IMG/VR virus record: IMGVR_UViG_2703718769_000010
Location: 1 to 6,574 of that record
From: a virus
Taxonomy: Duplodnaviria; Heunggongvirae; Uroviricota; Caudoviricetes
Direction: 5' to 3' (one strand)
DNA length: 6,574 nucleotides
Shown here: positions 1 to 6,574 of the stretch, one piece after another
Position numbering within the stretch: the stretch's first letter is position 1
Layout: each line of letters starts with the position of its first letter
Position numbers and translations under genes: made by a program
The notes under the pieces: generated by a model
What the model was told of the DNA's origin: nothing
The model's input: only the letters and a program-made list of their open reading frames with translations
Database searches by the model: none

Positions 1-675
1 CCGGTCAGTAACCGAACCCTGATGAGTCTGCTGGCGTCAGGCGAAGACCTGGCATCACAGGGCTGGCGCTATTATCACAAACCGGCGAGCGGAGACAGTA
101 TTGATAAAAACATCGCTGAGGCTGTGGTCAGTGATGAGGGTGCCACCGGTGGTAAGGCCCTGCAACTGAACAAACAGGAAAGCCACATCTGGTTTCTGGA
201 GCATGATGCAGCCGGGCAGGGGGCAGAGTTGCTGAAGAAAGGCGGACGTGTGAGTGTGCGGTTTAAGGTGCCGGGCTCACTGGTACAGAATCGGTTTGCC
301 CTGGGTATTTACTGGCAGTTGTCGTCCCTGCCGGAGGGGGTGTCGCTGGCAGAGGAAGGCAACGACATGCTGATGTCCTTCTTCCTGCAGACGGATGCGA
401 CGAACCTGAACGCGATGTACCACAAGACGCAGAATGTGAAGCTGGATACGTTCGGGGCATTTGATAACGAATGGCACACACTGTCTTTTGAGTTTGCCGG
501 AAACAACAGCATTCAGGTGACGCCGGTACTTGATGAGAAGCGGGGCACGCCATTCACGCTGGTGAAATCTCAGGCAACAGGGGTGGCGGATAAACTTCTG
601 CTGACTGATATCACGAAGGTGGCAACGTATACGCTGCTGATTGACAGCGTGAAGGTGGAAGTGAATAACCCGTAA
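1..675 (+). CDS. 3' end of a large late-region protein, truncated by the window edge; C-terminal beta-rich lectin/jelly-roll-like domain, possibly the C-terminal domain of a prophage NanS-p-type esterase
   Basis: Frame 1 is open from nt 1 (codons ccg gtc agt aac cga acc ctg precede the first ATG at 22); stop TAA 673-675. Sits immediately upstream of the lysis cassette, the slot for large cargo ORFs in lambdoid prophages. Family guess is from remembered synteny, not a search. Confidence 0.6.
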   Translation, partial: PVSNRTLMSLLASGEDLASQGWRYYHKPASGDSIDKNIAEAVVSDEGATGGKALQLNKQESHIWFLEHDAAGQGAELLKKGGRVSVRFKVPGSLVQNRFALGIYWQLSSLPEGVSLAEEGNDMLMSFFLQTDATNLNAMYHKTQNVKLDTFGAFDNEWHTLSFEFAGNNSIQVTPVLDEKRGTPFTLVKSQATGVADKLLLTDITKVATYTLLIDSVKVEVNNP

Positions 676-814
676 GCAGGAAAAAAAAGACCGCCGGTGC
701 AGGGAAAACAAGGAGCCAGAACCGGCGGCAGAGGTCGCTACATCCTTAGCAAACAAAAAATGCAGGACTGTTTTAACTAACGGGCATTAACCATGTCAAT
801 AATGGAGATGAATA

Positions 815-994
815 ATGACATTTTTACAGCTGATTATGTTGTATTTCTGCACGGTGGTGTGCACGTTATATCTGGTCAGTGGCGGGTATAAGGTTATCCG
901 GAACTATATACGCAAAAAGACTGATGCCGCGGCGGCGGAAAAAATCAGCACCGGTCAGTCAGCCGGAACCAGACCCGAAGAGCCGCTCATTTAG
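815..994 (+). CDS. Small hydrophobic protein, 59 aa (MTFLQLIMLYFCTVVCTLYLVSGGYKVIRNYIRKKTDAAAAEKISTGQSAGTRPEEPLI); one predicted TM helix then a basic patch
   Basis: Not in the ORF track (under 60 aa). ATG 815 is preceded by GGAGA at 804-808 with 6-nt spacing; stop TAG 992-994. It overlaps, in another frame, the GTG-initiated 5' extension of track ORF 879..1319, which I consider non-coding. Confidence 0.35.
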   Translation: MTFLQLIMLYFCTVVCTLYLVSGGYKVIRNYIRKKTDAAAAEKISTGQSAGTRPEEPLI

Positions 995-1034
995 TTGCAA
1001 TCTTCTTTACAACACCTTTCAACGAGAAAATTCC

Positions 1035-1319
1035 ATGTCAGAAATAAACCCCCTGGTCACTGCTGAGGCAGTGAAAGACGCGCTGCGCTCAGAAGATGTG
1101 CGTGGAGCACTGAAACAGAAAGTCCGCCAGACATTTGAAGCGCAGATAGAAGCGGAGGTGGATGCGATTCTGGATACGCTACTGGGCGAGCAGCCAGGCG
1201 AACAGCCAGAGCCGGAACCGCAACCGGAAGATATCACCTCAGAAAACGGCGATATTCAGCCGGAATCACCGGTGGTTGATGCGACTGAAGCACAACCCGA
1301 ACCGGGCACAATGCTGTAA
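1035..1319 (+). CDS. Small acidic hypothetical protein, 94 aa, with Pro/Glu/Gln-rich low-complexity C-terminal half
   Basis: First ATG of track ORF 879..1319 (the track start is a GTG); E. coli-like codons; weak SD (GAG at 1024-1026). Function unknown. Confidence 0.5.
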
Positions 1320-1330
1320 AGGTGAGTCAG

Positions 1331-1360
1331 GGCCATCAGTAAAGTACTGCTGGCCTTTTT
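1331..1360 (+). terminator. Intrinsic terminator-like hairpin upstream of the holin gene
   Basis: GGCCATCAG (1331-1339) pairs with CTGCTGGCC (1347-1355), one mismatch, 7-nt loop, followed by TTTTT (1356-1360). Confidence 0.5.
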
Positions 1361-1395
1361 CATGTTGTGAGCTTCCGGATTGCGGGAGACGGGGT

Positions 1396-1611
1396 ATGTA
1401 CCAGATGGAAAAAATCACAACAGGTGTGTCATACACCACGTCAGCGGTGGGGACGGGCTACTGGTTCCTGCAGCTGCTGGACAGGGTTTCCCCGTCTCAG
1501 TGGGCGGCAATAGGCGTGCTGGGGAGTCTGCTGTTTGGTCTGCTGACGTACCTGACGAACCTGTATTTCAAAATCAGAGAGGACCGTCGTAAGGCGGCAC
1601 GGGGAGAGTAG
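1396..1611 (+). CDS. S: Class II holin (pinholin, phage 21 S21-like), 71 aa, dual-start motif M1-Y-Q-M4
   Basis: [71 protein letters not shown] closely matches the S21 pinholin as I remember it (shared C-terminus [20 protein letters not shown]); two TM segments; GGGAG at 1384-1388, 7 nt before ATG 1396; second in-frame ATG at 1405. The track ORF start at 1162 is an artefactual upstream extension. Confidence 0.9.
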
Positions 1612-1614
1612 GTG

Positions 1615-2256
1615 ATGAACCATGAAGAAATGAATCAGCGCTTCAGTCGTCTGGAAAATGAAATTGCTGAACTGAATAAAAAACTGTCGGCGCTGATGCC
1701 TTCTGAAGATGCAAAAAAACGCCGCGATGAGCAGTTTGCGGCGTTTTACGATGATTGCATCAAAATTGCTCGCAGGACCTTTGCGAATATTTTGCAGGAA
1801 AAGTTTTTAGCGACCGCATTGTCAGAAAAGTACTCCATTACGGTTAAAAGTGCCGGAGAGGAAGGCAATAAACGTTATTTTATTGCGTCTGCACCGGATA
1901 AAGACCAGGAATGGGAGTGTAATCGGCCATCTTTTATTGTGAGCAGCGATGACTGGAATATCACGATCCGTGAAGATGGGAAAGTAACACCGGCATCGCA
2001 CCAGCACAGTGAGGCGCTCACTGAATTTGCCATTGATTACCTGAAGAACAATAAAAAGCAGGGGCTGATGCAGCGCATTGGTCGTTGCATGGGATATCTG
2101 CAGGTAGCTGCTGAGATTGAAGCGCTGGCCAGTGGTGCTGATAAGGATGCAGTTGTGCGGGAGACCGTTCTTCGTGATTTCAATACGCCACCCTTTAAGA
2201 AAGAGCCTGATGGCTGGATCCAGCCGGGGCTGACTTATCTCAAATGGTGCATATAG
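1615..2256 (+). CDS. Hypothetical protein X, 213 aa, N-terminal coiled-coil-like segment, no TM segment or signal peptide; unknown function
   Basis: ATG 1615 lies 3 nt after the holin stop (TAG 1609-1611), with GGGGAGAG at 1601-1608 as its RBS, suggesting translational coupling to S. Stop TAG 2254-2256. No family recognised. Confidence 0.75.
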   Translation: MNHEEMNQRFSRLENEIAELNKKLSALMPSEDAKKRRDEQFAAFYDDCIKIARRTFANILQEKFLATALSEKYSITVKSAGEEGNKRYFIASAPDKDQEWECNRPSFIVSSDDWNITIREDGKVTPASHQHSEALTEFAIDYLKNNKKQGLMQRIGRCMGYLQVAAEIEALASGADKDAVVRETVLRDFNTPPFKKEPDGWIQPGLTYLKWCI

Positions 2257-2283
2257 TAAAAGAGAAAACAATTGAGGTGAAAA

Positions 2284-2511
2284 ATGAAAAAATACGATAT
2301 GACAGTTAAATCATTCCACATGGGGGATAAAAATGTTGTCGTTGTCCTTGGTATATATAATTATCAGATTCCATCAATGCTGTTGTTCAATATTGAAATA
2401 GATATTGAACGACGGGAAGATGCTACCATTCCGTTTTATGAGGCGCTGGCTTTAAAAAAAGCAGTCTCGCTAATCCATGAAATTTCTGATGATTTAGCAG
2501 TGGCTGCTTAG
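2284..2511 (+). CDS. Hypothetical small protein Y, 75 aa; unknown function
   Basis: Strong SD GAGGT (2274-2278) 5 nt before ATG 2284; 27 nt downstream of X on the same strand, so probably co-transcribed; AT-rich relative to the flanking phage genes. Confidence 0.7.
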   Translation: MKKYDMTVKSFHMGDKNVVVVLGIYNYQIPSMLLFNIEIDIERREDATIPFYEALALKKAVSLIHEISDDLAVAA

Positions 2512-2515
2512 ATTT

Positions 2516-2803
2516 TTATTTCAAAAATGGCTCAGGACTGGTATTGCCAAACATGGGTCTTACCGGTGGTTGCATGAGGGTATTGATGGCGACTTTAATC
2601 TCTGGTTTACCTGAGGTTGTGATTTTGCTCAGTTCGCTATGTAACCTGGTTTTAAGCTCATCACTGAATTTCTTGTCTCCACTTTGCTGATCCAGAATGT
2701 CAACGATGTTGTAGAACAGGAAATTGGCTGCGGTATTTATAGCTATGTTTTCGCGCTGAAGCCCCTGAATTAGTTGAAAAAGTTCATGGTTTGATATTTC
2801 CAT
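2516..2803 (-). CDS. Hypothetical protein Z, 95 aa from the ATG at 2803 (MEISNHELFQLIQGLQ...); convergent with X-Y; unknown function
   Basis: Track ORF 2516..2866 starts at a GTG with no RBS. The internal ATG (+ 2801-2803) has AAGGAG 6 nt upstream on the minus strand; the ATG at 2833 has its SD abutting the start codon. Stop TAA (+ 2516-2518) is 4 nt from the Y stop. Confidence 0.6.
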   Translation of the reverse strand: MEISNHELFQLIQGLQRENIAINTAANFLFYNIVDILDQQSGDKKFSDELKTRLHSELSKITTSGKPEIKVAINTLMQPPVRPMFGNTSPEPFLK

Positions 2804-2927
2804 TAAGTTCTCCTTATTGAGGTTATCAGCCATCCCTCTTTTGTTACATGTGCCAGTGCCCACCACTGGCAGGCTGAAGACTTAACATATCCAGGGATTC
2901 GGAACCGATAAATCCTGATAAATATCC

Positions 2928-3461
2928 ATGAACACCAAAATCAAATACGGCCTGTCGGCTGCCGTTCTGGCGCTGATTGCCGCAGGTGCGCCTGCGCCTG
3001 AAATCCTCGACCAGTTTCTGGATGAAAAAGAAGGCAACCACACCACGGCATACCGTGATGGTGCGGGTATCTGGACCATCTGTCGCGGTGCCATTCTGGT
3101 GGATAGTAAACCTGTCGTCCCGGGCATGAAGTTGTCGAAGGAGAAATGCGACCAGGTTAACGCCATTGAACGTGATAAGGCGCTGGCATGGGTGGAGAAA
3201 AACATCAAAGTGCCACTGACGGAACCCCAGAAAGCGGGGATCGCGTCATTCTGTCCGTATAACATTGGTCCCGGTAAGTGCTTCCCGTCGACGTTTTACA
3301 GACGAATTAATGCTGGTGATCGCAGGGGAGCATGTGAGGCGATTCGCTGGTGGATTAAGGACGGTGGCAGGGACTGCCGTATTCGCTCAAATAACTGTTA
3401 CGGTCAGGTATCCCGGAGAGACCAGGAGAGCGCGCTGGCGTGCTGGGGAATCGACAGATAA
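2928..3461 (+). CDS. R: SAR-type endolysin (phage lysozyme, GH24/T4-lysozyme fold), 177 aa
   Basis: Gly/Ala-rich N-terminal signal-anchor-release segment (YGLSAAVLALIAAGAPAP) followed by the canonical catalytic spacing E-x8-D-x5-T in EGNHTTAYRDGAGIWT. SAR endolysins pair with pinholins, consistent with the S gene upstream. Confidence 0.92.
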   Translation: MNTKIKYGLSAAVLALIAAGAPAPEILDQFLDEKEGNHTTAYRDGAGIWTICRGAILVDSKPVVPGMKLSKEKCDQVNAIERDKALAWVEKNIKVPLTEPQKAGIASFCPYNIGPGKCFPSTFYRRINAGDRRGACEAIRWWIKDGGRDCRIRSNNCYGQVSRRDQESALACWGIDR

Positions 3462-3550
3462 GCAGAATATTTTGCTGATAAATGGCGTTGGCCAACGCGG
3501 GCGGATAACACGAAATCCTGCGAACTGGCAAAATGTAAGTGAGTAAAAGT

Positions 3551-3593
3551 AAAAACCCCGTTTGTTGGCAGCAAGCGGGGTTTTGTGTTTTCT
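3551..3593. terminator. Bidirectional intrinsic terminator between R and Rz
   Basis: A5 (3551-3555), 9-bp stem CCCCGTTTG (3556-3564) with CAAGCGGGG (3572-3580) including one G-U pair, 7-nt loop, then TTTTGTGTTTT (3581-3591). Confidence 0.6.
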
Positions 3594-3682
3594 GACCTTG
3601 AGTAAGGCAAGGGAGAAATTATGGGTAGGGAGGTGCTTTCCCTGTGAGGAAGTATAAAAGATTCTTTCTGAGGTTGTCCATT

Positions 3683-3796
3683 ATGAAAGGCATTGAAGTG
3701 GAGACGCCAGCCAGTCTGGATTTAACAAGAGCGGCAGCTTTTGCCATTCGTATTGTGGCCATTGCTGTTCTGGTCTGGGCAATCCGTTGGTGGTGA
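3683..3796 (+). CDS. Small membrane protein candidate, 37 aa ([37 protein letters not shown])
   Basis: Not in the ORF track. ATG 3683 with GAGG at 3670-3673; stop TGA 3794-3796 sits 1 nt before the Rz ATG at 3798; single C-terminal hydrophobic helix. Confidence 0.35.
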
Positions 3797-3797
3797 T

Positions 3798-4265
3798 ATG
3801 AACCGTGTTCTGTGTGTGGTGATTATTGTCCTGCTGGTAGCCTGTGGTGTGCTTAGTCTGGGGCTGAATCATTACCGCGATAACGCCATCACCTACAAAG
3901 CGCAGCGCGATAAAAAAGTCAGTGAGCTGAAACTGGCGAATGCCACTATTACTGATATGCAGCAGCGCCAGGGTGATGTTGCTGCGCTTGATGCCAGATA
4001 CTCGAGGGAATTAGCCGATGCGAGAGCTGAAAATGAAACTCTGCGTGCTGATGTTGCCGCTGGTCGTAAGCGCCTGCGGATCAACGCCACCTGCTCCGGT
4101 ACCGTGCGTGAAGCCCCCACCACCTCCGGCGTGGATAATGCAACCGGCCCCCGACTGGCAGACACCGCTGAATGGGATTATTTCATCCTCAGAGAACGGT
4201 TGATGACAATGCAGAAGCAGCTGGAAGGGGCGCAGGAATATATCCGCACTCAGTGCCTGAAATAA
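3798..4265 (+). CDS. Rz: Rz i-spanin (inner-membrane spanin subunit), 155 aa
   Basis: [40 protein letters not shown]...[18 protein letters not shown] aligns along its whole length with lambda Rz as I recall it; N-terminal TM segment then coiled-coil periplasmic domain. The track ORF start at 3741 is an upstream extension. Confidence 0.9.
4018..4203 (+). CDS. Rz1: Rz1 o-spanin (outer-membrane lipoprotein), 61 aa, embedded in the +1 frame of Rz
   Basis: [61 protein letters not shown]: lipobox VVSAC, proline-rich mature region, close match to lambda Rz1; lies entirely inside Rz in another frame; GAGGG at 4004-4008 upstream. Confidence 0.85.
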
Positions 4266-4465
4266 GTTTTGCTGATGCGCCGTATCGTCGCCGTATTCCC
4301 GCATTAACAGAGACCGCAGCCCGACAGGGAGACTCCTCTGCGAGAGTGTGTGGGGATAATCAAAAACGATACACACCGGGGTTTACCGCGTTAACGGAGC
4401 GCGGCGTTGTCCCCTCATAGTCGCCAGTCCGGTGCGATGGTGGAAGAAACTGGAGTTTAGACAAT

Positions 4466-4499
4466 AAAAAAAACCTGCCGGGTTGTAGCAACGGCAGGT
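4466..4499 (-). terminator. Intrinsic terminator for leftward (minus-strand) transcription
   Basis: On the minus strand: stem CCTGCCG / CGGCAGG (+ 4474-4480 / 4492-4498), 11-nt loop, followed by T8 (+ strand A8 at 4466-4473). No T-run on the + strand side, so it is unidirectional. Confidence 0.6.
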
Positions 4500-4535
4500 G
4501 ATGGCACATGCAGAAGAGAATAGTATTGTTGTTAT
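4466..4535 (-). ncRNA. Candidate ~70-nt small RNA (minus strand) ending at the 4466-4499 terminator
   Basis: Putative sigma70 promoter on the minus strand: -35 TTGAAA (+ 4564-4569), 16-nt spacer, -10 GATAAT (+ 4542-4547). No credible ORF between promoter and terminator. Purely a sequence-based prediction. Confidence 0.3.
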
Positions 4536-4541
4536 TTTTTT

Positions 4542-4569
4542 ATTATCATTTTTTCAGAGTTGTTTTCAA
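4542..4569 (-). promoter_or_regulatory. Putative sigma70 promoter (TTGAAA-16-GATAAT) for the candidate small RNA
   Basis: Hexamer matches read directly from the sequence; the -35 lies inside a 16-bp motif repeated at 5201-5216. Confidence 0.3.
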
Positions 4570-5104
4570 CTCGAAATAATCGAGCCTGAATTATAATACT
4601 TACTATGCGTTATTTACTTATATTATGCTCCATGTTGCGGGACTGGGCGGTTTCCATCAGACAGTTGAGATGAATGACGAAAAGAATATTTCTTATTGTT
4701 AAGCTTTTCTGAATAATGTTTGGAGCGTATAAAATTGCCTTTGTGGCTCCTTGTGTGTGGGGGCAGGTTTTTATAGGGTGTTGTTTACTCTTATATAACA
4801 CACTGCTTTAAGTATGTTCAGCCTTCATAGGATTATTTATGCAAGTCTGGCGTTTTAATTTTATAATGTTTGCCGCCTGAACATGATTGTGAATTTCTCC
4901 TTATTTTACTGAGTGAATCTTTAAGCGAAAAATGGGTGCAACTGCTCTCGAGAGCTTTTGTCAGTGTAGCGGCCGTATTTTTTGCTGATAACGATGCAGA
5001 AGCCACCGGATGAGATTCAGATATACCTGGAAAAAGCCTGAATTGAAAAGAAACAGGTGTAATGTGCAGCACGGCTGGGGAATAAAAAATATGTGAGCAT
5101 AATC

Positions 5105-5134
5105 AAAAAAAACTGCTGTGTTGGCGCACAGCAG
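5105..5134 (-). terminator. Intrinsic terminator for leftward transcription
   Basis: On the minus strand: perfect 8-bp stem CTGCTGTG / CACAGCAG (+ 5113-5120 / 5127-5134), 6-nt loop, followed by T8 (+ strand A8 at 5105-5112). Confidence 0.65.
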
Positions 5135-5177
5135 TAAAGATTGGATAAGGGTAGAAGATTATTATTATTATTCTTTT

Positions 5178-5216
5178 GTTTTATTTTATGTGACGGATTA
5201 TTTCAATTCGGAATAA
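5178..5216 (-). promoter_or_regulatory. Second copy of the conserved motif with a weaker promoter-like arrangement (TTGAAA-17-TAAAAC), paralogous to 4542-4579
   Basis: TTTCAATTCGGAATAA (5201-5216) versus TTTCAACTCGAAATAA (4564-4579), 14/16 identical, same orientation, each about 65-70 bp from a minus-strand terminator. The -10 here lacks the conserved final T. Confidence 0.2.
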
Positions 5217-5343
5217 CTGTAGGTAATAACTTTAAGTTATCGTAAAGCCTGCAATGTTAAGGATTAGTTATATAAAGGGGCAGAGAAACGGTCCGACCCT
5301 CTGGCCTCATTCTTTAAACTTGTTATGCGATTAGCATGTTTTC

Positions 5344-5378
5344 TTGTCAGTTGTCAGTTGTCAGTTGTCAGTTGTCAG
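5344..5378. repeat. Perfect tandem heptanucleotide repeat (TTGTCAG)x5
   Basis: Five uninterrupted copies at 5344-5350, 5351-5357, 5358-5364, 5365-5371 and 5372-5378; overlaps the 3' end and stop codon of the minus-strand RHH ORF. Confidence 0.95.
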
Positions 5379-5522
5379 TCTCCGGCGACAGGCTTCAATA
5401 ACCCACGCTGAAAAGTTACCGGACCCTTTATGCTCAAGGGCGCTGTTGATCTGTTCAATCATGTGATTGGGGAAACGGATATTGCGGGTTGTTGTTCTGC
5501 GGGTTCTGTTCTTTGATGACAT
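5361..5522 (-). CDS. Small ribbon-helix-helix (CopG/Arc/omega-like) DNA-binding protein, 53 aa (MSSKNRTRRTTTRNIRFPNHMIEQINSALEHKGSGNFSAWVIEACRRRLTTDN)
   Basis: Not in the ORF track. Hand translation of the minus strand: ATG at + 5520-5522, stop TGA at + 5361-5363. Pattern of beta strand (RNIRFP), helix A (NHMIEQINSALEH), G-x-S/N loop and helix B (FSAWVIEACRRRL) is typical of RHH proteins. Weak SD (GGGG). Confidence 0.55.
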   Translation of the reverse strand: MSSKNRTRRTTTRNIRFPNHMIEQINSALEHKGSGNFSAWVIEACRRRLTTDN

Positions 5523-5710
5523 AATGTTGCCCCATATTCAGTGTTGCTGATTTGTATTATCTGAAGTTGCTTTTACGTTAATTTGATGCAGATCAATTAA
5601 TACGATACCTGCGTCATAATTGATTATTTGACGTGGTTTGATGGCGTACACGCACGTTGTGACATGTAGATGATAATTATTATTTTGTGGGTCCTTTCCG
5701 GCGATCCGAC

Positions 5711-5740
5711 AGGTTACGGGGCGGCGACCTCGCGCGTTTT
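5711..5740 (+). other. cos: Lambda-type cos site; cosN 12-nt cohesive-end sequence GGGCGGCGACCT at 5719-5730
   Basis: GCGATCCGACAGGTTACG-GGGCGGCGACCT-CGCGCGTTTTCGCTATTTATGA matches the lambda genome-end junction as I remember it (lambda begins GGGCGGCGACCTCGCGGGTTTTCGCTATTTATGAAAATTTT). The match fades about 35 nt into the cosB side. Confidence 0.85.
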
Positions 5741-5946
5741 CGCTATTTATGAGATTTTTTGAGGGGGTGGTTGTTGTTTAATTGTTTGGTATATCTAATT
5801 GATAAGTAAGGTGAAAATAAAATAAATACAACAACCTCACGATGTATTTTGATGTCATTAATGTGAAAAAATTCAATGATATCAAATGGTTTTGTAAAAA
5901 CACATGGTTGTTGTATCGCTTTTTATCGATGACTTATGGAGAGGAG

Positions 5947-6453
5947 ATGGCCTTTTTATTGAATAAAAGTGATATGGCCTCCTCCATCGGTATCTCTGTT
6001 CAGGCATTTGATAAATGGGGCGTTCCTCCTGTTGAGCGTCGGGGGAGGGAAGTTTTTTATGACGTTAAAACTGTACTGGAGATAGATCGCGAGCGGCGAC
6101 AACACAATCAGAGAACACCTGATGACGGGGGCGATCTGGAGGAAAGGCTGCTTCGGGCCAGAGCTGAACTGACAGAAGAACAGGTCGTAGCTCAAAAACT
6201 TAAAAATCAGGTAACCGAAGGTAAGCTCATCGATTCAGACTTCTGCGTTTTCGCCCTCAGCAAGCTGGCGATGGCATTGTCCAGTACGCTTGATTCTATT
6301 CCGTTATCCATGCAGCGACAGTTCCCGGATTTAACGCCACGTCATATTGACCATCTGAAAACCCTTATTGCGAAGGGCGCAAATCAGTGTGCGCGGGCAG
6401 AGGATAAATTACCGGATTTGCTGGATGAATATATCAGAGCAACAACTGAATAA
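5947..6453 (+). CDS. nu1: Terminase small subunit (lambda Nu1-like), 168 aa from the ATG at 5947
   Basis: C-terminal two-thirds aligns with lambda Nu1 (FCVFALSKLAMALSSTLDSIPLSMQRQFPDLTPRHIDHLK vs FCTFVLSRIAGEIASILDGLPLSVQRRFPELENRHVDFLK); GGAGAGGAG directly upstream of ATG 5947. Track start 5842 and the ATG at 5929 lack an RBS and would fall in cosB. Confidence 0.88.
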   Translation: MAFLLNKSDMASSIGISVQAFDKWGVPPVERRGREVFYDVKTVLEIDRERRQHNQRTPDDGGDLEERLLRARAELTEEQVVAQKLKNQVTEGKLIDSDFCVFALSKLAMALSSTLDSIPLSMQRQFPDLTPRHIDHLKTLIAKGANQCARAEDKLPDLLDEYIRATTE

Positions 6454-6574
6454 TCTGATGGTTGCCGTTTCGGTTGCGCTGCAGCCTCTGGTCAGGGGTG
6501 TACCGATGACGGCAGTTGAATGGGCTGACCAGTATTATTATCTGCCGAAAGAATCCTCATACGGGGACGGAGAA
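6425..6574 (+). CDS. A: Terminase large subunit (lambda gpA-like), N-terminal 50 codons, truncated by the window end
   Basis: MNISEQQLNNLMVAVSVALQPLVRGVPMTAVEWADQYYYLPKESSYGDGE aligns with the lambda gpA N-terminus (MNISNSQVNRLRHF...PQTAVEWADRYYYLPKESAYQ); overlaps the end of nu1 by 29 nt, as in lambda. Not in the ORF track. Confidence 0.85.
   Translation, partial: MNISEQQLNNLMVAVSVALQPLVRGVPMTAVEWADQYYYLPKESSYGDGE

Follow-up and report, generated by a model that had tools for sequence, protein, structure and literature searches.

A diverged HnrS-family small RNA gene, predicted from homology, stands in tandem with an hnrS-like paralogue in the late region of an Escherichia coli prophage

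The closest described relatives of the element reported here are prophage-encoded small RNAs (sRNAs) of Escherichia coli O157:H7 Sakai. EcOnc10, EcOnc11 and EcOnc12 were first listed as strong Hfq peaks in crosslinking and analysis of cDNA (CRAC) data (Tree et al. 2014, Table S2, PMC4104026), and are now known as HnrS, encoded by prophages Sp12, Sp10 and Sp9, respectively, under a name given in a 2025 preprint and published in 2026 (Poudyal et al., PLoS Pathog 2026, PMC13502914). HnrS is a 66-nucleotide (nt), Hfq-associated primary transcript, documented in O157 Sakai by differential RNA sequencing (dRNA-seq), Term-seq, Northern blotting and Hfq crosslinking, that accumulates in early stationary phase and blocks the ribosome-binding site of hha, switching off the gene silencer Hha; single point mutations in its seed abolish repression, and no consequence was detected for its perfect 15-nt match to the end of mazF (PMC13502914). 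A second group, AgvB, AsxR and EcOnc03, comprises short (51-60 nt), Hfq-bound, RNAs encoded by lambdoid prophages that are antisense to late transcription and carry ARN repeats near the 5' end; in Sp10 and Sp9 the anti-sRNA genes, AgvB1 and EcOnc03, are followed ~5 kb further downstream by EcOnc11 and EcOnc12, respectively (PMC4104026). Here we describe a candidate HnrS-family gene in a 6,574-nt stretch of DNA (positions 1 to 6,574 of IMG/VR record IMGVR_UViG_2703718769_000010, hereafter the window), which corresponds to the late region of a lambdoid prophage from E. coli. We refer to this gene as unit 1 (4579-4466, minus strand), to a second, hnrS-like gene in the window as unit 2 (5216-5105, minus strand), and to unit 1-like and HnrS-like forms as type A and type B (Table 1).

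A profile hidden Markov model built from Sakai hnrS and one unrelated IMG/VR type B copy, with nothing from the window included, was searched with nhmmer and matches unit 1 end to end (4579-4468, minus strand; model positions 2-114; E=6e-9). The same profile matches unit 2 over its whole length and has no other significant match in the window. RNA identity between unit 1 and HnrS is 58.6%, far from the identity or near-identity to EcOnc10/11/12 that would define HnrS in the strict sense (the identical Sakai copies), and by these homology searches unit 1 is a diverged paralogue of hnrS, not HnrS itself. The initial annotation of this DNA had proposed a free-standing leftward gene for a ~70-nt regulatory sRNA and had overlooked both its family identity and the second paralogue (5105-5216). 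The proposal agrees with homology to the mapped hnrS gene that runs from promoter to terminator, from which we infer expression of this variant. Unit 1 is thus very probably a genuine, expressed HnrS-family sRNA gene, and our overall reading, that it is a self-contained gene of type A acting most likely as HnrS does, appears likely.

The Sakai reference sequence was located after correction for a +128-base-pair (bp) shift between Sakai genome versions, verified on AgvB1, which puts EcOnc11 of Sp10 on a minus-strand unit immediately following Rz; its downstream flank is 93% identical to window 4200-4497. The equivalence of EcOnc11 and HnrS was checked in three ways, by this shift, by the 15-nt mazF complementarity and by the hha pairing, and the extracted sequence reproduces both published pairings: CUUCUACC:GGUAGAAG over the ribosome-binding site of hha, and that of CUACCCAAUCAGUAC with the final 15 nt of mazF. 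Counted from the A of AUAACAAU to the last U, its length is exactly 66 nt, and this start aligns with A4535 of the window, the 5' end predicted in the initial annotation. Other identities were considered. Rfam 15 gave no match at E<=1 in the whole window, and in a sensitive search of 4400-5280 its best matches were far under threshold (e.g., CyaR, 19.8 vs 47 bits). Esr41 (EcOnc14, SpLE1) was rejected, as the region shows no similarity to it, as was EcOnc33 (Sp6, ~71 nt), which is located in another slot, upstream of the lysis genes.

Unit 1 has the anatomy of a complete transcription unit. The near-consensus minus-strand sigma70 promoter reported initially was recovered at the same place, and its score (10 of 12 consensus matches) makes it the joint best promoter-like site in the window. 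The motif TTATTYCGARTTGAA, which contains the -35 hexamer, is common to all type A and type B genes aligned, and GATAAW is retained at the -10 position in all three type A subtypes. Alignment of units 1 and 2 with their E. coli relatives shows further common elements, namely an AAN-triplet 5' end, a CUUCU core and the terminator. Promoter-like sites as such occur at the rate expected by chance in this AT-rich region (10 found vs 9.6 expected), so the case for function rests on homology and conservation. That rate would suit a reading in which a promoter-like site and a hairpin stand together by accident, or in which the hairpin terminates a longer minus-strand mRNA arriving from the right. However, the homology to an experimentally mapped sRNA gene extends end to end, the -35 motif is conserved across the family, and the next minus-strand gene to the right (5361-5522) is cut off from unit 1 by the unit 2 terminator (5135-5112), which leaves this alternative with hardly any credibility.

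The predicted RNA (4535-4466, minus strand) reads AUAACAACAAUACUAUUCUCUUCUGCAUGUGCCAUCACCUGCCGUUGCUACAACCCGGCAGG-U8. It folds with its 5' 36 nt unpaired, followed by a GC-rich terminal hairpin (nt 37-63) and the U run (minimum free energy -13.6 kcal/mol), and the family alignment gives a matching consensus of 38 unpaired 5' columns and a 7-bp terminator stem. Two of the seven stem pairs are compensatory between types A and B, one changing from C-G to A-U and the other from C-G to U-A via a U-G intermediate. On the plus strand the hairpin is preceded by A8 and is not followed by a T run; the terminator is therefore unidirectional, as initially claimed, and it went unlisted in a simple terminator scan because its loop exceeds 8 nt. 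Sequence features of Hfq-binding RNAs are present in the form of (AAN)3 at nt 3-11 and a U8 tail after the GC hairpin, ARN runs occur in every HnrS-family member aligned, and the overall architecture resembles class II sRNAs, as noted for AgvB.

No protein-coding alternative was found. The Prokaryotic Genome Annotation Pipeline (PGAP) annotation of the ST866 chromosome has no coding sequence (CDS) from Rz to the YlcI/YnfO-like gene, and open reading frames (ORFs) in the Rz-to-DUF3950 interval lack both Pfam matches and conservation among the subtypes. A 49-amino-acid AUG-initiated ORF across the unit 1 terminator shrinks to 6-8 codons in the other type A subtypes. We therefore reject a small-protein reading, in line with the earlier view that the stretch between promoter and terminator, and the interval from Rz to the terminase side as a whole, are free of protein genes. 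Neither sRNA unit is annotated in any record examined.

Table 1 Features of the two sRNA genes and their surroundings (window coordinates).
Feature	Coordinates	Strand	Basis
Unit 1 promoter motif TTATTTCGAGTTGAA, including -35 TTGAAA (4569-4564)	4565..4579	-	Promoter scan; family alignment
Unit 1 -10 hexamer GATAAT (4547-4542), spacer to -35 of 16 nt	4542..4547	-	Promoter scan
Predicted ~70-nt type A sRNA, 5' end A4535 +/-2 nt, 3' end inside U run	4466..4535	-	Alignment with 66-nt Sakai HnrS
AAN repeats AACAACAAU, RNA nt 3-11; putative Hfq distal-face motif, also complementary to GcvB R1	4525..4533	-	
Type A seed UUCUCUUCUGCAUGUGCCAU, RNA nt 16-35, with CUUCU anti-Shine-Dalgarno core	4501..4520	-	
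Unit 1 intrinsic terminator: hairpin 4499-4473 and U8 4473-4466	4466..4499	-	Fold and 7 conserved pairs
Unit 2, canonical (type B) hnrS-like gene	5105..5216	-	Profile match E=9e-28
Unit 2 parts	promoter motif 5216-5202; predicted RNA ~5172-5105; terminator stem 5135-5112 and U8	-	
Segment present in window, absent from Sakai Sp10	4497..5106	.	Window vs Sp10 alignment
Rz spanin gene, upstream neighbour, late-operon orientation	3741..4265	+	Pfam Phage_lysis E=2e-47; PGAP 'lysis protein'
DUF3950 YlcI/YnfO-like gene	5364-5522 (Pfam match); ORF 5361-5522	-	Pfam
Terminase small subunit gene	5842-6453	+	

Searches of 5,426 complete E. coli genomes found type A in 135 and type B in 568; type B is also present in 71 sequenced phage records, nearly all of them Shiga toxin (Stx)-converting phages. 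Type A divides into the window form (4 genomes), the GB089 form (~40) and the 2015C/RM10466 form (~90), and an O157:H7 label is attached to none of 40 sampled type A carriers and to many type B carriers. The 2015C/RM10466 form lies outside the Rz-terminase slot, ~380 nt upstream of an AraC-family regulator gene and on the same strand, with copies (L003 2505-2618 and L004 2505-2617, both minus strand) among remnants of the insertion sequences IS3 and IS66 and with a porin gene nearby; its presence at this other locus indicates that promoter, seed and terminator moved as a unit. A metagenome seed scan returned eight matches, of which seven belong to the 2015C subtype and one arose by chance; no new subtypes appeared. 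Among GTDB species representatives, a strict full-unit pattern found no true copy and one spurious match, in a SAR324 metagenome-assembled genome. This exact-motif pattern, which would miss diverged relatives, did not detect the strict combination of motifs outside E. coli. Promoter-motif scans of IMG/VR gave mostly random AT-rich matches and were useful only after the full-unit filter.

Across the three type A subtypes, which are otherwise 78-81% identical, only one position of the 20-nt seed varies (C or G). Two diverged tandem lineages, ~75% identical overall, show identity peaks in the type A RNA body (83-87%), the -35 region (90%, 4563-4592) and the whole of unit 2 (83-97%), separated by troughs of 47-67%.

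We propose that the unit 1 promoter would start transcription at about A4535 and that the intrinsic terminator would release an RNA of ~70 nt. The unstructured 5' AAN-repeat region would contact the distal face of Hfq and the GC hairpin with its U8 tail the proximal face, with the CU-rich single-stranded seed as the pairing module; Hfq-assisted pairing in trans to a purine-rich ribosome-binding site would then block translation. As a single target, the Shine-Dalgarno sequence of hha, AGAAG, is the best candidate, and repressing Hha would lift the silencing imposed by Hha/H-NS on horizontally acquired genes. The prophage carries two tandem family members with different seeds. Net cofolding energies against hha positions -80 to +60 are -6.8 kcal/mol for the window form, -7.0 for GB089, -11.4 for 2015C and -7.2 for validated HnrS. 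The predicted pairing of all three type A subtypes and of HnrS covers one and the same Shine-Dalgarno site of hha, with flanking base pairs that vary by subtype, and the predicted unit 1 duplex joins CUUCUGC-A-UGUG to CAUA-G-GUAGAAG. The hha paralogue cnu (ydgT), considered as an alternative target, gave no pairing.

Several results weigh against this reading of unit 1. The hha duplex of the window variant is not better than those of shuffled seeds (z=-0.9), in a low-powered test in which even validated HnrS reaches only z=-1.9. The unit 1 seed also differs from HnrS at two of the eight validated seed positions (CUUCUGCA vs CUUCUACC), and type A was not found in the 50,697 sequenced phage records, so that its copies may be mostly in cryptic prophages. 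Given the weak shuffle test and the two seed differences, we hold targeting of hha by type A, as modelled here, to have somewhat less than an even chance of being real. Pairing with the 3' coding end of mazF is strong for HnrS (-27.1 kcal/mol, z=-8.0) and the complementarity is absent from unit 1 (-12.2, z=-0.5). Because no functional consequence of it was found (PMC13502914), mazF pairing may not define the HnrS family.

Some of these observations could also be read as signs that unit 1 is a functionless, decaying hnrS duplicate in which promoter-like and terminator-like sequence persists by chance: RNA identity to HnrS is modest, the mazF complementarity is lost, and type A is the rarer type and was not found in sequenced phage genomes. 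Such decay is hard to reconcile with a 20-nt seed that has one variable position in three subtypes from different genomic contexts, with a -35/-10 pair that still scores 10 of 12, or with a hairpin that is intact and followed by U6-U8 in nearly all copies. Identity peaks that are limited to the RNA body and the -35 region, along with the near-invariance of the seed, speak against decay, and we regard the duplicate reading as very unlikely.

A different function is suggested by the CA-rich 5' end. The first 9 nt of unit 1 RNA, AUAACAACA (4527-4535, minus strand), equal nt 2-10 of Sakai AgvB1, GAUAACAACACAACAAUAUC (L007 ~364-372, minus strand), which could reflect convergence on an Hfq- or GcvB-binding motif or exchange of a 5' module. 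Unit 1 could accordingly be an AgvB-like anti-sRNA (sponge), either as its sole function or as a second one alongside an mRNA-targeting seed; with its 5' AUAACAACAAUAC resembling a GcvB target, the RNA would bind the R1 seed of GcvB and so lift the repression that GcvB exerts on amino-acid and peptide transporters. The 5' sequence AACAACAAUAC is predicted to form a 10-bp helix with R1 (-12.7 kcal/mol; -12.6 in GB089), the whole-seed duplex with the R1 region is better than 98% of shuffles, and unit 1 would resemble AgvB in being a short, ARN-repeat-containing prophage sRNA encoded antisense to late transcription. However, the helix is shorter and weaker than that of AgvB (14 bp, -19.2 kcal/mol), and the pairing is lost (-6.8) in the most widespread subtype, 2015C/RM10466, where this sequence is replaced by AAUAAAAUA or AAUAAUAUA. 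Since the downstream seed varies at one position only across subtypes, it is the seed, and not the CA motif, that appears to be under selection. AAN repeats are present throughout the family, HnrS included, and binding to the Hfq distal face accounts for them. Identity with AgvB was rejected after comparison with the AgvB, AsxR and EcOnc03 sequences and the Sakai AgvB1 locus, as scaffold, promoter and genomic site all differ. Of the initial suggestion that prophage regions of this kind encode regulatory or anti-sRNA molecules, the regulatory part holds in that unit 1 belongs with the HnrS family; the AgvB/AsxR anti-sRNAs have a different scaffold and a different prophage site, which the initial annotation had overlooked. 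We consider the sponge reading unlikely, and GcvB titration, going by the modelled pairing, possible as a secondary role of type A. An intermediate scheme, in which type A is a dual-module RNA whose 5' decoy titrates GcvB while its nearly invariant CU-rich seed represses hha or other ribosome-binding sites, and which with type B would form a two-gene cassette of diversified seeds rewiring host silencing and amino-acid uptake, strikes us as rather improbable.

Returning to the reading of unit 1 as an HnrS-family gene, its partner is the more canonical member. Unit 2 lies 637 bp to the right on the same strand, its seed CUUCUACCC is the same as the HnrS seed, and its RNA, which shares 81% identity with Sakai HnrS, retains little of the mazF complementarity (-12.0 vs -27.1 kcal/mol in HnrS). 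Type A and type B stand in tandem, 635-654 bp apart, in 12 sequences examined, the window counted, and in the prophage contigs examined type A is usually found in tandem with a type B gene. Comparison with Sp10 shows how the arrangement may have arisen. Window 4200-4497 aligns to positions 1881-2176 of the Sp10 region (L005) and window 5106-5522 to positions 2147-2536, and the intervening segment, which holds the unit 1 promoter, most of the unit 1 RNA body and the spacer, is absent from Sp10. Both junctions fall inside the two terminator hairpins, which suggests that the segment arose by duplication or by insertion of a module through recombination at the terminators.

Directly upstream of the -35 hexamer in both units, a 10-nt sequence, TTATTYCGAR (4570-4579 and 5207-5216, minus strand), is conserved in both types, with divergence farther upstream. 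It could be a binding site for a shared regulator or an upstream-promoter (UP)-like element, perhaps tied to the early-stationary-phase accumulation of HnrS. On the plus strand, promoter-like sites at 4551-4580 and 4746-4764 stand back to back with the sRNA promoter, and a terminator-like hairpin, GCTCCTTGTGTGTGGGGGC, with a T run lies ~170 nt downstream; together these could produce a divergent transcript in the spacer between the sRNA genes.

The setting in the late region raises one further possibility. Window 4300-4700 is 99.8% identical to the chromosomes of ST866, ST865, OkiPb01678 and OkiPb01712, and in ST866 PGAP gives the order holin, endolysin, Rz-type lysis protein, 1.1 kb without CDS, the YlcI/YnfO (DUF3950) gene on the opposite strand, and terminase. 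Rz is in late-operon orientation, and both sRNA genes are consequently antisense to late transcription. Their position between Rz and the terminase small subunit gene would fit a mainly cis-acting role, in which a convergent promoter and antisense RNA within the Q-antiterminated late transcript modulates read-through from lysis to packaging by transcriptional interference or by RNase III cleavage of the duplex. A target scan over 12.4 kb of prophage is consistent with this insofar as the sole perfect complement is the late transcript; that trivial antisense site is the only one that stands out, the rest being within chance. However, the 2015C subtype keeps its seed at the AraC-regulator locus, where a cis role cannot apply, HnrS at the same position acts in trans on a chromosomal mRNA, and no coding sequence or ribosome-binding site lies opposite unit 1 RNA. 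We judge a mainly cis role highly improbable and retain trans pairing in the manner of HnrS as the preferred account.

Further features of the surrounding DNA were noted. A GC-rich block directly after Rz (4293-4442) is 87-100% conserved in 30-nt windows between diverged lineages, and a 401-nt query covering it has matches in 1,863 of 5,426 E. coli genomes, at a median of two places per genome; the block has no PGAP CDS and no Pfam match. A structured-RNA reading of this flank (4290-4460) was rejected, as it folds no more stably than its shuffles (z=-0.34). A perfect tandem repeat of the heptamer TTGTCAG (5.1 copies, 5344-5379) overlaps the 3' end of the DUF3950/YlcI-YnfO ORF. Conservation between the two tandem lineages is lowest here (17-30% identity), so the copy number is probably variable. 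Within the lysis cassette, a hairpin of 15 bp with a T-rich tract after it (3552-3584, plus strand), located between the genes for endolysin and Rz, looks like an intrinsic terminator that Q-modified polymerase would need to read through.

The novelty is modest and consists of a second type of seed, the tandem arrangement and the module's mobility. HnrS has so far been described only as identical copies in O157-type prophages, and the family is broader, with seeds of at least two types and, within type A, three subtypes, and the two units of the window flag genes that have gone unannotated. If type A does repress hha, RNA-based counter-silencing would operate in more E. coli lineages than reported, and estimates of gene dosage from exact hnrS matches would be undercounts. 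If instead its target differs, the family would offer a case of natural seed swapping on a fixed sRNA scaffold in phages and inform how prophages evolve new host regulatory links.

Compared with known systems, unit 1 is closest to HnrS. Both occupy the same spot directly after Rz, antisense to late genes and with the same downstream flank, and they share a homologous promoter (TTATTYCGARTTGAA with a TTGAAA -35), a similar size (66 nt mapped for HnrS, 70 nt predicted for unit 1), AAN repeats at the 5' end, a single-stranded CUUCU anti-Shine-Dalgarno core, and a homologous terminator hairpin with compensatory changes and a long U tail. They differ in the seed (CUUCUGCAUGUGCCAU in unit 1 vs CUUCUACCCAAUCAGUAC in HnrS), in the 15-nt mazF complementarity, which unit 1 lacks, and in the -10 hexamer, which is nearer consensus in unit 1 (GATAAT). 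Moreover, type A stands in tandem with type B whereas HnrS stands alone, and HnrS has been mapped experimentally whereas the type A transcript is predicted.

The sequence likeness to AgvB is confined to the 5' end, where the two RNAs begin almost identically and both are able to pair with GcvB R1 (predicted for unit 1). The 5' end of AgvB mimics the GcvB R1 target consensus CACAACA over a longer helix than unit 1 could form, and this pairing is not kept in the 2015C subtype. The promoter of AgvB/AsxR and their conserved 3' scaffold, GUAUCUCAUGCUAUUGCCCGAACCCAUUCGGGC, are unrelated to unit 1, which shows no 3' similarity to the ~42-nt scaffold including its GCCCGAACCCAYUCGGGC terminator. AgvB and AsxR genes occur as convergent pairs between Q and the lysis genes, at the PR' moron site, while unit 1 follows Rz and has its partner in tandem on the same strand; and their 5' end is the variable functional part, while in type A the central seed varies least. 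In phage lambda the bor moron, which encodes a lipoprotein, occupies the Rz-to-cos interval. Unit 1 lies in the same genomic slot and, like bor, is a leftward, self-contained promoter and terminator unit whose expression from the prophage would not depend on the late operon; unlike in lambda, the 1.1-kb interval here has no CDS and holds two predicted sRNA genes instead.

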